Origin: Myxococcota bacterium
GTDB taxonomy: Bacteria; Myxococcota_A; Polyangia; Nannocystales; Nannocystaceae
Direction of reading: 5' to 3'
NCBI GenBank assembly: GCA_039028615.1
Contig: JBCCHT010000007.1
Coordinates: 160,001-224,000 of the forward strand
DNA: 64,000 nucleotides
The notes beneath the pieces were generated by a model, which was not told the origin of the DNA, did no database searches, and saw only the letters and a list, made by a program, of their open reading frames with translations. A program made the translations under genes and the position numbers. Positions 58,026 through 64,000 of the stretch are shown here, piece by piece; the first letter of the stretch is position 1; every line of letters begins with the position of its first letter.

Positions 58026-59074
58026 TTCGGCTCTTGCTCGTCCTGTTCCGGCGCGTGGTGGTGCAGCGCCGCAACGAGCTGCTCAAGGTCGCCCTGCTCA
58101 CCCTGGTGCTGGTGGCGTTCTCCTCGTCGGGCTTCATGTACTTCGAGCTCGCCGACAAGCCGGACCTCATCTGGGCCGACGCGGTGTGGTGGTCGATCGT
58201 CACGATGACCACCGTCGGCTACGGCGACTTCTTCCCCACCACCCCCGGCGGCCGCTACATCATCGGCTTCCCCACGATGCTCTTCGGCATCAGCATCCTG
58301 GGTTACCTGCTGTCGACCCTGGCGACCTTTCTCATCGAAGAACGCTCGAAGGAACTCAAGGGCATGAGCGAGAGCAAGCGAAGCGACCACATCCTGCTCA
58401 TCCACTATCCGGGGCTCGCGCGGGTGCAGGGCGTCCTCACCGAGCTTCGCACCGACGAGAAGACCGCCGGCTGCCCGGTGGTGATCGTCGATGCCTACCT
58501 CGACGAGCTCCCCAAGGCCCTGGCCGCCCAAGGGGTCGAGTTCGTCAAGGGCGACGCCTCCAAGGAGAGCACGCTGGACCGGGCGCACTTCCACGAGGCT
58601 CGCTTCGCGATCATTCTGTCGCAGGACCCCAACGATCCGGGCAGCGACAACGCCAACCTGGCCGCCGCGCTGACCCTCGAGCACCTGCACCCCGGCATCT
58701 TCACCGTCTCCGAGTGCATCGACCCCGAGCGCATCGAGCTCTTGTACAAGGCCGGCTGCGACGCGGTGGTGTGTCTGACCGCGCTGGCCACCAACCTGGT
58801 GGTGCACGAGCTGCTCGACCCCGGCGTCCAGAAGGTGATCGGCGAGGCCACCAACAACCTCTCCGGGCAGAACATCTACATGGTCGACGTCACGGCCGGC
58901 GACGGCTCGACCTACGTGAGCGCCCGCGATGCCATGGAAAACCGCGGCTGCGCCGCGATGGGGCTCGAGCGTCAGGGCAAGGTGATCCTCAACCCCGACG
59001 CCGAGACCGAGCTGAGCGAAGGCGACCGGCTGATCTGCATCGCCCCCTCGCGGCCCGAGTCGCTGCGCCTTTGA
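58022..59074 (+). CDS. 2-TM potassium channel with RCK domain
   Basis: Selectivity filter TTVGYGD; VKGDAS...LDRA; ATGA overlap with the SNase-like gene. Confidence 0.92.
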   Translation: MIRLLLVLFRRVVVQRRNELLKVALLTLVLVAFSSSGFMYFELADKPDLIWADAVWWSIVTMTTVGYGDFFPTTPGGRYIIGFPTMLFGISILGYLLSTLATFLIEERSKELKGMSESKRSDHILLIHYPGLARVQGVLTELRTDEKTAGCPVVIVDAYLDELPKALAAQGVEFVKGDASKESTLDRAHFHEARFAIILSQDPNDPGSDNANLAAALTLEHLHPGIFTVSECIDPERIELLYKAGCDAVVCLTALATNLVVHELLDPGVQKVIGEATNNLSGQNIYMVDVTAGDGSTYVSARDAMENRGCAAMGLERQGKVILNPDAETELSEGDRLICIAPSRPESLRL

Positions 59075-59149: not shown

Positions 59150-60139
59150 ATGCCCAGTGACATGGGTCCTGCCCCGCCGACCGAGCTGCCCCGCTGGGAC
59201 GAGCTGCGCGCGCTCGTGCTGCGACTGGCGCCGGCCGAGGGCCTCAACCAGACCGCGCTGCCGGGCGTTCGAATCTCCCGCTTCGATCGCCCGCAGAGCT
59301 GGCAGTTCTTCTCGACCCCCGGGCTCGCGATCGGGGTGGTGGTGCAGGGCCGTAAGCAGACCCGCGCGGCCGATCAGGTGCTGTGCTACCACCCCCCGCA
59401 GTTCCTCGTGCTGACGGGCGAGCAGGACTTCCAGTCCGAGATCCTGCAGGCGAGCCCCGAGTCTCCCTATCTGTCGGTGGGGATCTTCATGCCGGCCGAG
59501 GTGGTCGCCGAGACCATGATCGAGCTGGGTAAGGTCGACGATGCGCCGACGGGACGGGCCGAGCCGGGCCCGAACGCCTTCGTCTCCACCGTGGACGAGC
59601 GCCTGCTCGGGACCGTCATCCGCCTGCTCGCCACCGCCGAGGACCCCGCCGAGCGACGAGTCCTGGCGCCGCTGGTCACCCGCGAGCTGGTGTTCCGGGT
59701 ACTGCGCTCCGACGCCGCCGCCTCGCTGCGCCACGCGGTGGGCCGCGACGGCAACGAGCACCGCATTCAGCAGGCCATGGCGTTCATTCGCGAGCACGCC
59801 GAGCAGCCACTCTCGGTCGAGACGCTCGCCCGTCGGGTCGCCATGAGCCCCTCGCATTTTGCCCATCGCTTCGCCGCCATCGCCCGGACCTCTCCGATGC
59901 GCTACCTCAAGCAGGTCCGGCTCCACCGCGCCCGCGCGCTGCTGGTCGACGGCTCGGTACGGGCGAGCGAAGCGGGCGAGCGCGTGGGCTACTCGAGCCC
60001 CTCGCACTTCTCCCGCGACTTCAAAGGCCTGTTCGGCGTCCCGCCCGGCACCTTCGCCAGACGGGCGCGCTCCAACTTCGCAGGATCGGACAAGACTCCA
60101 GCAGCGACCGCCCTGGGGCATGCCTCCGACTCCTCCTAA
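59150..60139 (+). CDS. AraC-family regulator
   Basis: VVQGRK, ASPESPYL, MSPSHF, SPMRYLKQVRL, VGYSSPSHFSRDFK. Confidence 0.92.
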   Translation: MPSDMGPAPPTELPRWDELRALVLRLAPAEGLNQTALPGVRISRFDRPQSWQFFSTPGLAIGVVVQGRKQTRAADQVLCYHPPQFLVLTGEQDFQSEILQASPESPYLSVGIFMPAEVVAETMIELGKVDDAPTGRAEPGPNAFVSTVDERLLGTVIRLLATAEDPAERRVLAPLVTRELVFRVLRSDAAASLRHAVGRDGNEHRIQQAMAFIREHAEQPLSVETLARRVAMSPSHFAHRFAAIARTSPMRYLKQVRLHRARALLVDGSVRASEAGERVGYSSPSHFSRDFKGLFGVPPGTFARRARSNFAGSDKTPAATALGHASDSS

Positions 60140-60148
60140 GTTGAGCGC

Positions 60149-61141
60149 ATGGACAACACCACGCTTGGAACCCGCGGCCCCGCAGTCTTCCCCATCGGCC
60201 TCGGGTGCATGGGGATGTCGGAATTCTACGGCGAGAGCGACGACGCGCGCTCGATCGGGGTCATCCACCGCATGCTCGAGCGCCTGCCTGGGCGGGCCCT
60301 GCTCGACACCGCAGACATGTACGGCAGCGGCCACAACGAGAGCCTGATCGGCCGGGCGATCGCCGATCGGCGCGACCGGGCGGTCATCGCCACCAAGTTC
60401 GCGATCCTGCGCGGCGAAGGGGGCTCGTTCGCGGGCATCTCCGGTCGGCCCGAGTATGTCGCCCCCGCCTGCGACGCGAGCCTCAAGCGCCTGGGCATCG
60501 AGACCATCGATCTGTACTACCAACATCGCGTCGACCCGCAGGTCCCCATCGAAGACACGGTGGGAGCGATGGCAACGCTGGTCGAGGCGGGCAAGGTGCG
60601 GCACCTGGGCCTGTCCGAGGCCGCCCCCGCCACGGTCCGCCGGGCGCATGCGGTGCATCCCATCGCGGCGGTGCAGACGGAGTACTCGCTGTGGAGTCGT
60701 GACCCCGAGGGCGAGCTGCTCGAGACTTGCAAGGAGTTGGGCATCGCGCTGGTCGGCTACTCGCCGCTGGGCCGCGGCTTCCTCAGCGGCACCATCCGCA
60801 GCGTGGACGATCTGGCGGCCGACGACTTCCGTCGGGGGATGCCGCGCTTTTCCGCGGACAACCTCCCTCGCAACCTGGCGCTGGCCGACGCCGTCCAGCA
60901 GCTCGCCCGAGCCAAGGGGTGCACGCCCGCTCAGCTCGCGCTCGCTTGGTTGCTGGCGCGGGACGAGTCGGTGATCGCCATTCCGGGTACGCGCTCGATC
61001 GCCCGGCTCGAAGAGAACCTCGATGCGGTGAAGGTCGAGCTGAGCACCGAAGACCGGGCGCGAATCGATGGCGCCCTGCCCCACGGCGCAGCGGCGGGCG
61101 ACCGCTACTCCGCCGCCCAGATGGCCGCCGTCAACGGATAG
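60149..61141 (+). CDS. Aldo/keto reductase
   Basis: [43 protein letters not shown]. Confidence 0.95.
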
Positions 61142-61144
61142 CGG

Positions 61145-61759
61145 TCACGCGGGGGCGGCCGCGGGCTTCGGGCGCGACCGCTGGGGGCTCGGGGATCCGG
61201 CCACGGGTTTGTTGAAGGTCGGCGAAGACCCCGGGCTCGCGCCCTGCTCGGGGACCTTCGCGGCCGGCTCGGACTCGGCGACCTCGGCCCGCGGGGTCCC
61301 CATGTGGCAACGACCTTCGAGAATTCCTCCTTCGTCGATCACCACCGCCGTGGCCGTGACGTCCCCGTCGACGCTGCCGCTGGTGCTGATCATCAGCTTG
61401 GTCGCCTCGACGTCGCCACGGATCGAACCCTCCACGACGACCTCGGTGCCCTGTACGGCGCCGACGATCGTGGCGCTGCTCCCGAGGGTCAGCTCGTCGA
61501 CTTCGACGTCGCCTTCGATCGATCCGGCCAGCTCGAGTCCACTGGTGCTCGACAACGAGCCGCGGATCGTCATGTCGTGGCCGATGACGTTGACCGGAGC
61601 GCGCGGGGGTTCGGGTGCGGGTGCGGGTACCGGTGTGGGTTCAGGGGCGCGTGGTCGTTCGGAGGCGGCTTCGAGAGCACGCCTGGGCGCGGGCTCCGCG
61701 GAGACTTCGGGTTCGTCGACCTCGACCTGACGACCCAACAAACGCTGAAAGAAGCCCAC
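61145..61759 (-). CDS. Bactofilin (polymer-forming cytoskeletal protein)
   Basis: VIGHDMTIRGSL...GSIEGDV...VVEGSIRGDV...IDEGGILEGRCHM; amphipathic N-terminus MGFFQRLLG; GAGG RBS. Confidence 0.9.
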   Translation of the reverse strand: MGFFQRLLGRQVEVDEPEVSAEPAPRRALEAASERPRAPEPTPVPAPAPEPPRAPVNVIGHDMTIRGSLSSTSGLELAGSIEGDVEVDELTLGSSATIVGAVQGTEVVVEGSIRGDVEATKLMISTSGSVDGDVTATAVVIDEGGILEGRCHMGTPRAEVAESEPAAKVPEQGASPGSSPTFNKPVAGSPSPQRSRPKPAAAPA

Positions 61760-61870
61760 ACCTCATCTTCCCATGAAGCCCGTGCGCGATTCGTCGAAAC
61801 ACCGGCCAGATCTGGGCCTTGGAATTGGCGTTACAAACGTCGCTCGGAGTCCACAAAATGGTGTGGGGGA

Positions 61871-63400
61871 GTGGTTTCCGATTCTCAGCTCGAGTGTGCC
61901 ATCCATGGCCGCCTCGTCGGCGACGCCACGGGCGATACCGTGCTGTCGATCGGCCCCGCCGGACATGTCGTCGGCAATGTCAGCGCACCGATCCTGATCG
62001 TCGCGGGCACCATCCGCGGCAATGTGCGGGCGCGGTTGTTGCTCGTTCGAGCGACGGGGGTCATCGAGGGCGACGTCGCCTACGAACGGATCAGCGTGGA
62101 CGATGGCGCATCGATCATCGGACGCGTCGGTAGGCCTTCCCTCGATGACTTGCCCGTCGTGCCGCGACCGGCCGAGCTCACGCCGCCCCTTCGGCACACG
62201 CCTGCGCCGACGGCCCGGGCCCGCCCGCAGCCCGTCGACGTCACCCCCCCGACTGGGCCCACGCCGTCGCCAACGCCGGAGCTCCGTCCGCCGCCATCGC
62301 AGCACCCCGCGTCCGAGTCGGCCGAAGTCTTCGTACTCGAGCCCGGTCGCCGCCGCCCCCCGTCGCGCGCCACGGGCCGCCGTTCCGTCCGCATGGGCAA
62401 GCAGTGGTTCGTGGCCGCGGCCGCTTCGATGCTCACCGTCACCCCGTTGCACGCCGATGGCCCCAAGGCCAAGGCCGCCAAGGCGGACGTCGAGGTCGTC
62501 GAGTCCAGCTCCGCCAGCCCTTCCCTGCTGGCCCTGCCGAGCATTCCGTTCCTGCGCCCGCCGACCGACGACTCCGAGGTGGTCGAGGCCAGCCCCGCCA
62601 TGGACGTGGCGTGGACCCTCGACAAGGCCGCCAACCTCCGCATGATGTCGTTCCGCTGGGGGCTGCCCGAGTCCGAGCTCGCCCAGCTCAACCCTCAGCT
62701 CGAGCGTCGCACGATGTACCCGGCGGGCACCGAGGTCTGGGTGTTCCGCAGCGACCCCGAGGCCATCACGCGCTCGCTCGGCTATCCGAACCGGGGCTCG
62801 CTGGTGCATGGCATTCCCATGCCGCAGAGCGAGCACTGGACGATGCGAGGCGGCCGACGACGGGTGTACGGCACCGCCACCACCATCGCGACGCTCTCCA
62901 ACGCGTTCGCGGCGTATGCCGCTCAGTTCCCCGATGCGGACCCGATCCGCCTCGGAGACATCTCCGCCCGACGCGGCAAGCACATCAGCCCCCACCAGTC
63001 ACACCAAAGCGGCCGCGACGTGGATATCGCCTACGTGCGGCTGGCCCCGCCGACCGGCAAGCGGCGCGGCATGTGGCAGACCGCGGTCGAGAACCTCGAT
63101 GCCACCCGCACCTGGTTTTTGGTGCGCACGCTGATCGACTCCGGCGTCGTACAGTCGATCTTCGTCAACCAAGAGGTCCAACGCCCGATCCGCGAGGCCG
63201 CGCTGGCCGATCTGCCGGCCGCGGAAGTCGACGAGTACATGGAGTTCCTCTCCCACGAGGATGGCCACAAGGGCCACATGCACGTCCGTTTCCTCTGCGA
63301 GCACGGCAACCTGCAATGCCGCCCGCACTCCCTCCCCACCCCCACCACGAGCCGCGCCGCCCAGTCTCCCGAAGCGGGCCTGGCCGACGACGGTGACTGA
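61871..63400 (+). CDS. Bactofilin / Pro-rich linker / hydrophobic segment / LysM-like / MepA (M74) murein endopeptidase fusion
   Basis: IGPAGHVVGNV...GTIRGNV...GVIEGDV...VDDGASIIGR; SLGYPNRGSL, GDIS, HQSHQSGRDVD, HKGHMHVR; one uninterrupted frame. Confidence 0.85.
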   Translation: MVSDSQLECAIHGRLVGDATGDTVLSIGPAGHVVGNVSAPILIVAGTIRGNVRARLLLVRATGVIEGDVAYERISVDDGASIIGRVGRPSLDDLPVVPRPAELTPPLRHTPAPTARARPQPVDVTPPTGPTPSPTPELRPPPSQHPASESAEVFVLEPGRRRPPSRATGRRSVRMGKQWFVAAAASMLTVTPLHADGPKAKAAKADVEVVESSSASPSLLALPSIPFLRPPTDDSEVVEASPAMDVAWTLDKAANLRMMSFRWGLPESELAQLNPQLERRTMYPAGTEVWVFRSDPEAITRSLGYPNRGSLVHGIPMPQSEHWTMRGGRRRVYGTATTIATLSNAFAAYAAQFPDADPIRLGDISARRGKHISPHQSHQSGRDVDIAYVRLAPPTGKRRGMWQTAVENLDATRTWFLVRTLIDSGVVQSIFVNQEVQRPIREAALADLPAAEVDEYMEFLSHEDGHKGHMHVRFLCEHGNLQCRPHSLPTPTTSRAAQSPEAGLADDGD

Positions 63401-63430
63401 ACCAACCCCCGTAGCCTTGGAGCGAAAGCC

Positions 63431-63850
63431 ATGCCCGAGTCCAGCAACTTCATCACCGAAGACACGACCGTCAACGGCGACATCACCACCGCGTCCTCCC
63501 TGACCATCGCCGGCACCGTCAACGGCGACATCGAGGCGGAGCAAGACGTCACCATCCTCAGCACGGCCACCGTGACCGGCAACGTGTCGGGCCCCGGGAT
63601 TCAGGTGCAGGGCAAGGTCAAGGGCAAGGTCGCCGCCAGCGGCCGCCTGGTCATCGGAGCGACGGGCGGCGTGTGGGGCGACATCTCCGTGCGGGCGCTC
63701 CTCATCGAAGAAGGCGGCGTCCTCGAGGGTCAGTGCAGCATGCGGAGTGCGGAAGCCGAGGCCCCCGCGCCGAGTCCCGAGGTCCCGCGCCCGAACCTTC
63801 GGCCACCGCTCAAGCCCCCGGGTGGTGGCGACGCGCGGCCTTCGGCGTAG
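63431..63850 (+). CDS. Bactofilin
   Basis: ITEDTTVNGDI...GTVNGDI...QGKVKGKV...IEEGGVLEGQCSM; GGAG RBS. Confidence 0.92.
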   Translation: MPESSNFITEDTTVNGDITTASSLTIAGTVNGDIEAEQDVTILSTATVTGNVSGPGIQVQGKVKGKVAASGRLVIGATGGVWGDISVRALLIEEGGVLEGQCSMRSAEAEAPAPSPEVPRPNLRPPLKPPGGGDARPSA

Positions 63851-63856
63851 ACGGGC

Positions 63857-64000
63857 TCAGGATCGCGAGGCATCGCGCGGCGGCGCGGCACAGGGCTGCC
63901 CCGTCGCCCACGTGTATACGACGCTGGTCACCGCGCCTCCGTGGAAGTCCTCGGGCTCGCGTTCGGCGAGTACGCCTCCGCGGGCTTCGTAGAACGAGCA
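63857..64000 (-). CDS. 3' end of a probable GNAT acetyltransferase (partial)
   Basis: Manual translation CSFYEARGG...VTSVVYTW...stop; FYE..GG resembles a GNAT C-terminal motif. Confidence 0.5.
   Translation of the reverse strand, partial: CSFYEARGGVLAEREPEDFHGGAVTSVVYTWATGQPCAAPPRDASRS

Follow-up and report, generated by a model that had tools for sequence, protein, structure and literature searches.

A bactofilin domain and an M74 peptidase in one reading frame of a marine myxobacterium: a candidate cytoskeleton-guided wall hydrolase

Introduction

How bactofilin scaffolds hold the enzymes that remodel the cell wall is described as poorly understood (PMC12448750). Two such clients, LmdC and PbpC, are reported to bind bactofilin by N-terminal cytoplasmic tails (PMC10945521, PMC12448750), and PbpC's N-terminal peptide is reported to be both required and sufficient for recruitment to BacA (PMC12448750). 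In the bactofilin-LmdC systems of Hyphomonas neptunium and Rhodospirillum rubrum, and in the CcmA-Csd1 system of Helicobacter pylori, the bactofilin gene adjoins that of a peptidoglycan endopeptidase which crosses the membrane once and has its cytoplasmic N-terminus at the scaffold (PMC10945521). Bactofilin domains on membrane-spanning chains have also been described, in Proteus CcmA and Haloferax HalB (PMC12448750, PMC11459167). Filament formation is reported to require both end faces of the bactofilin domain (10.1101/617639).

The locus that we describe lies in a window of 64,000 nucleotides from a marine myxobacterium, and its enzyme belongs to a different family, M74. One member, MepA, is a soluble enzyme of the periplasm and consists of a single domain. 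In Escherichia coli it is reported to cut 4-3 and 3-3 cross-links alike, and the H113A mutation to inactivate it (10.1101/2021.02.12.430937). In our locus, one gene encodes a bactofilin domain and an M74 peptidase, with a stand-alone bactofilin gene on either side (X downstream, Y upstream). The arrangement is like that of LmdC and Csd1 in that a bactofilin gene adjoins a predicted single-pass endopeptidase. Unlike LmdC, which is an M23 peptidase on a separate chain and docks by a beta-hairpin (PMC10945521), the fusion combines M74, a LysM-like domain and its own bactofilin domain; no M23 match was found among the scanned proteins. The fusion would work like the LmdC and PbpC modules but is not a member of them, because its enzyme is M74 and fused. 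It also differs from Proteus CcmA, in which the helices are N-terminal, and from HalB, whose bactofilin domain is extracellular; no enzyme is described on either in the available parts of these reports (PMC12448750, PMC11459167). The earlier statement that no bactofilin-M74 fusion is known holds for the titles and abstracts of openly accessible papers, where we found neither a fusion nor a pairing (subscription papers and supplements were outside this scope); the "M74" in the available text of one review is part of a DOI string (PMC12288465).

Our preferred reading, which we put at roughly 55%, is that the product is a single-pass inner-membrane chain, with its bactofilin domain docked on the filament of its neighbours and its peptidase cutting the wall outside.

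Results

Domain architecture of the fusion

The frame runs uninterrupted from GTG 61871 to TGA 63398-63400 (509 codons), in the order bactofilin, Pro-rich linker, hydrophobic segment, acidic spacer, LysM-like domain and M74 peptidase (Table 1). Among solved structures, BacA (2n3d), MepA (1tzp) and TtBac (6ria) are nearest to it in sequence. An AlphaFold model built on an eight-row alignment has a mean pLDDT of 61.7, and its top fold matches are MepA (1tzp first, E 1.2e-7), Hedgehog, which has the LAS fold too, and bactofilin filaments.

Table 1. Features of the fusion locus, in window coordinates
Feature	Position	Strand	Basis
Stand-alone bactofilin Y, divergent (head-to-head) to the fusion	61145..61759	-	PF04519 E 2.1e-20, full length
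GGAG and ATG 61858, well-spaced start context, out of frame with the fusion	61846..61860	+	Duplex energy
Fusion gene, 509 aa	61871..63400	+	Open frame, Pfam, architecture common to P0011, P0012 and P0013
Bactofilin domain without first beta-helix winding (about five windings)	61871..62128	+	PF04519, model, 6ria match
Pro-rich linker, predicted disordered, Arg-rich patch at end, internal ATG 62393	62129..62404	+	pLDDT, composition
Ala-rich hydrophobic segment, signal-anchor or signal-peptide-like, LHA at end	62405..62455	+	Hydropathy
LysM-like domain	62606..62746	+	Strand-helix-helix-strand in model; profile alignment to LysM-repeat protein
Peptidase M74 (MepA-type, LAS fold), HxxHxxxxxxD and HxxHxH, two C-terminal cysteines	62777..63337	+	PF03411, 1tzp
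Stand-alone bactofilin X, 30 bases downstream of the fusion	63431..63850	+	PF04519 E 7e-24, full length

The C-terminal domain matches PF03411 at E 1.4e-17 (64.5 bits against a cut-off of 25), and E. coli MepA (1tzp/1u10) is its best match by both sequence and fold. Both zinc motifs named in the sequence-only reading, HQSHQSGRDVD (62993-63025) and HKGHMH (63266-63283), were found, and they are conserved in all four fusions described below. When the domain is aligned to 1tzp, the LAS zinc ligands and the catalytic histidine are present. The domain is not a MepA equivalog, since it is only about 20% identical to MepA and scores 65.1 bits, far under the NCBIfam cut-off of 272 (PRK09429).

The LysM-like assignment, also made earlier, is tentative and draws on weak matches in relatives, a profile alignment to a LysM-repeat protein and a fold element. 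In the model, a strand-helix-helix-strand element occupies residues 249-295 and is followed by an alpha/beta domain. No Pfam LysM match (PF01476) was obtained in the fusion protein at E<=1. Weak matches occur in three of eight relatives (E 0.023-0.11), and LysM structures appear among the fold matches of the model only at E 0.08-0.16.

The bactofilin domain is recognized by PF04519 at E 8.7e-15 (55.2 bits against a cut-off of 27.9), and both of these Pfam matches, bactofilin and M74, lie in one frame as the sequence-only reading had claimed. In the other three fusions the bactofilin model scores 49-62 bits. The modelled beta-helix spans residues 11-90 (pLDDT 74-90) and superposes on 6ria with an rmsd of 0.9 over 70 columns. 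Its fold and glycine pattern are those of the canonical bactofilins, namely C. crescentus BacA (2n3d), Thermus TtBac (6ria/6rib) and Myxococcus xanthus BacM and BacNOP. Unlike these, the fusion has no N-terminal membrane peptide, carries a putative C-terminal membrane segment and an enzyme, and has about five windings in place of six with both end faces. The match covers model positions 16-97 of 98, so that the domain claimed earlier is present without roughly its first 15 positions. The number of windings is tied to the uncertain start codon.

The first winding is absent also in the fusion P0013, whose bactofilin domain is 40% identical to that of the window protein; the last is absent in P0012, and the P0011 domain is whole. 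At the C-terminal polymerisation column (F130 of BacA, F105 of TtBac), the window fusion has Ile, P0013 and P0011 have Val, and the region is absent from P0012; the neighbouring bactofilins X and Y have Leu. With the first winding missing in the window domain and in P0013, such a domain probably attaches to a filament, or caps it, through the C-terminal face and would not polymerise alone. The missing winding could otherwise mean decay.

Recurrence of the fusion

An 88-codon linker stays open by chance with a probability of about 25% at the local GC content, so the single frame is by itself weak proof of a fusion. Contig X1 spans this region at a depth of 18.5 and shows 0 differences and 0 gaps, though it may be the source sample itself; contigs X2 and X3 do not reach across. 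An assembly artefact, or a stop codon lost by chance in one genome, would gain from the open linker and from this sole covering contig. The same contig, by spanning the stretch cleanly, also argues against it, and the same domain order recurs in three other sequences, which excludes a lost stop codon as the cause. We give this explanation almost no weight.

Both domains lie in one frame in three of 73 Nannocystaceae genomes (20-21 candidates scored per genome): the window genome (G000), G024 and G009. When 1.84 billion representatives were searched with a profile, the best 150 matches included four of full length, of which P0013, from a metagenome assembly, was new. Four fusion proteins are thus known in all, and the other three are 35-38% identical to the window protein. 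Compared pair by pair, the four are 45-55% identical in the M74 domain, 26-40% in the bactofilin domain and 18-31% in the linker. None of the four is split into two separate genes, the outcome in relatives that the sequence-only reading had named as speaking against it, and unfused M74 relatives share their clade. The fusion is real, and its recurrence in the other three proteins is the decisive evidence.

It is also rare. Shallow searches of 80 metagenome loci and of 400 other genomes of the phylum yielded no more fusions; in these genomes only three candidates were scored per genome, and a bactofilin match was absent from all 29 loci fetched. Word-index protein searches added none; they are weak, as they missed the known three fusions too. 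Two weak bactofilin matches (G024:C110 and G009:C176) are not M74 fusions. One locus on the former contig (L083, 2452-2706, minus strand) encodes weak repeats of bactofilin type with several hydrophobic helices behind them and, by eye, recalls the halofilin HalB type.

The four fused bactofilin domains cluster together (94/95 for three of them; SH-aLRT 93 for all four), on long branches, and the M74 domain of P0013 pairs with the unfused P0014 (87/86). The trees neither reject nor establish that the fusion arose only once (p-AU 0.476).

The start codon and the N-terminal part

The true start codon of the gene is uncertain. GTG 61871 lacks a well-spaced Shine-Dalgarno site in front of it, and the duplex energy is -3.0 there against -6.1 at the site of ATG 61858. 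That ATG opens a frame of 91 codons which ends at 62133, and a run of five G lies between it and the GTG. Contig X1, which again may be the source, carries identical letters here. A frameshift concealing the first winding was considered, because the other frame, upstream of the G run, resembles a first strand by eye, and was rejected: that frame has no bactofilin HMM score and a codon score of -0.76. Neither frame upstream of GTG 61871 looks coding. The out-of-frame ATG 61858 with its good site stays unexplained.

These features bear on the possibility of a passenger or decaying bactofilin part, in which an upstream bactofilin gene ran into the gene of an ordinary secreted LysM-M74 protein and that the working product starts at about ATG 62393. 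The start context of the long frame is poor and a good one lies out of frame. The fused domains are truncated and long-branched, and the codon score (synonymous codons) is low upstream, at 0.10 for the bactofilin domain and 0.03 for the linker against 0.27 for the M74 part. From 62393 onward the sequence resembles a complete signal peptide, and with 16 M74-like frames in the genome a loss would be tolerable. However, the frame and the glycine pattern are kept in four proteins at 45-55% M74 identity, and the window protein and P0013 are truncated alike even though their domains are only 40% identical. Moreover, ATG 62393 lacks a Shine-Dalgarno-like site, and G024 and G009 offer no start codon that would leave an n-region ahead of the hydrophobic segment. 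We regard the passenger explanation as unlikely, and the second isoform that had been proposed from ATG 62393 finds no support. A sigma-70-like site at 62619-62646 was rejected as its promoter, since it sits downstream of that ATG.

The hydrophobic segment

Residues 98-246 of the model have pLDDT below 50. Near the end of the linker, five of the 15 residues before the hydrophobic segment are Lys or Arg. The segment that the sequence-only reading took to be membrane-spanning is 18 uncharged residues long, but its hydropathy is low for a membrane helix (best Kyte-Doolittle KD19 0.94, KD13 1.64). In the other three fusions it has 16-24 uncharged residues and KD19 of 1.2-2.0.

The segment is weak and resembles signal peptides in unfused relatives, so cleavage after LHA is possible, at a site judged by eye. 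In that case the full chain would be made and signal peptidase I would free a soluble periplasmic LysM-M74 protein, while the bactofilin part would set the site of export or stay tethered to the membrane. The segment is short and Ala-rich and is followed by Pro and a small-residue site, and similar features can be seen in the other fusions and in P0014 and P0016, unfused relatives with signal peptides. In addition, Proteus CcmA is reported to occur in two forms through processing (PMC12448750). Against this, the helices of a tailed sister group (see below) are strong and of the uncleaved type (KD19 2.25-2.63 in P0018 and P0025), which suggests anchoring as the habit of the clade. We hold cleavage to be doubtful, though it deserves attention, and favor the anchored chain.

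Flanking bactofilins in a variable slot

X is likely to be co-transcribed with the fusion gene, and no terminator-like site was found within 61100-64000. The N-terminus of Y (MGFFQRLL), by eye, is like the membrane-targeting peptide in the available text of PMC12448750. The window genome has seven bactofilin matches; its congeners G004 and G005 have four each, and these group with four that are located elsewhere in G000. Close homologs of X (E<=1e-22) occur in 26 of 73 family genomes and in none of five congeners.

The flanks at 59070 and 64514 are retained in G004 and G002, where they enclose about 4.3 and 3.5 kb of other DNA. Y, the fusion and X were thus gained or lost together. An AraC-type regulator and an aldo-keto reductase (59150-61141, Pfam) lie in the same variable slot and are absent at the syntenic site in these two genomes. 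A bactofilin gene is adjacent to the hydrolase gene on both sides at the window locus. The fusion and the X-like gene sit on separate contigs in G024 and G009, and the 15 kb fetched around each fusion contain no other bactofilin.

The M74 clade and its SGWxW tail

A tree of 98 LysM-M74 domains places the fusions within one group of 30. A tree of 36 chosen rows gives a clade of 18 (support 97/96), made up of the four fusions, nine tailed members and five with neither feature. The tailed members are unfused and begin with about ten residues, after which come an invariant SGWxW, a Pro/Arg-rich stretch and the strong membrane helix noted above. SGWxW or SSWxW occurs in 20 of the 98 rows, every one inside the clade. 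The tail has the layout of that of Caulobacter crescentus PbpC, with a conserved N-terminal peptide, a Pro-rich stretch, basic residues and a membrane helix; the likeness is one of layout, and PbpC differs in being a wall synthase and unfused (PMC12448750).

A tailed LysM-M74 gene (E<1e-90) was found in 20 of 73 family genomes, at L192:2894-4141 of G014 and 19 further loci. In G014 it stands head-to-head with a Y-type bactofilin, as the fusion does in the window; this is the only one of the 20 loci with a bactofilin nearby. No genome has both tail and fusion (0 of 73). With weaker X matches dropped and the three fusion genomes added to the 20, X and a tailed or fused M74 occur together in 22 genomes, X alone in four (G042, G047, G051 and G052, 72-87% complete), M74 alone in one (G001, 72% complete) and neither in 46. 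The cut-offs were set after the scores were known, and about six related lineages account for all positives, which makes the co-occurrence no more than a hint.

The chain could also be anchored and active while its bactofilin domain self-polymerises or has a partner other than X or Y, the co-occurrence then reflecting shared ancestry only. The whole domain of P0011 would fit this, as would the unlinked fusion and X genes of G024 and G009 and the four genomes with X and no detected clade member. But the window domain lacks one polymerisation face, and filaments are reported to need both (10.1101/617639); at the window locus, moreover, the three genes stand together in a variable slot. We judge this possibility to be very unlikely.

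Discussion

The domain order, the zinc motifs, the four diverged proteins, the flanking bactofilins and the co-occurrence of the clade with X point to a third type of module that pairs a bactofilin with a wall enzyme, in addition to those of LmdC and PbpC, here fused into one chain. We suggest the following working order for it. The basic residues before the hydrophobic segment and the acidic ones after it would place the N-terminus inside and the C-terminus outside. The fused bactofilin domain would then dock by end-to-end beta-stacking on a filament of X and Y, which is probably held at the membrane by the N-terminal peptide of Y. On the outer side, the LysM-like domain may bind glycan, and the M74 domain, acting as a D,D-endopeptidase, would cut cross-links near the filament and so remodel the wall locally. 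It is in this sense that we infer "cytoskeleton-guided" wall cutting. The sequence-only reading made the same proposal but overlooked the pair of neighbouring bactofilins, the absent first winding and the sister group with the peptide tail. In the unfused relatives, the conserved SGWxW cytoplasmic peptide probably docks in the manner of the N-terminal tails of LmdC and PbpC.

Several findings count against the anchored and docked reading. The segment is weak, the fused domains are diverged, three of the four lack one end, and codon bias is low upstream. No other bactofilin lies within the 15 kb fetched around the fusions of G024 and G009, only one of the 20 tailed loci has one nearby, and five of the 18 clade rows have neither tail nor bactofilin domain.

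A broader proposal is possible, and we advance it tentatively. The LysM-M74 clade may be a third class of bactofilin client, in which most members dock on a dedicated extra bactofilin via SGWxW and a few have swapped this peptide for a one-faced capping domain. The enzyme would then limit the filament and cut the wall at its tips, and the three-gene cassette would move between lineages.

A natural fusion is a Rosetta-stone clue, here to M74 peptidases as bactofilin clients besides M23 peptidases and PbpC. It also supplies SGWxW as a short candidate docking peptide and the X and Y types as candidate partner bactofilins, and a one-faced bactofilin domain, if true, would be a natural filament cap. 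The scope of these ideas is set by the rarity of the fusion and by its carriers, which are genome bins as far as seen.

Some further observations concern the M74 family in these bacteria. The only congener copy of the tailed gene (L216, G001:C624) groups with genera g15 and g9 and represents either transfer or contamination, the genome being 72% complete in 1520 contigs. One genome, G044, has two near-alike tailed copies (C5:2219-3403 and C17:26245-27429), through either duplication or a binning effect. E. coli has the M74 family once; the sixteen M74-like frames of G000 are a large expansion, and many matches occur in its relatives also. Finally, P0115 and P0095 combine an L,D-transpeptidase (YkuD), a LysM-like domain and M74 in one chain, uniting a maker and a cutter of cross-links; YkuD was matched by Pfam in P0115 (E 4.5e-21) and assigned by eye in P0095.
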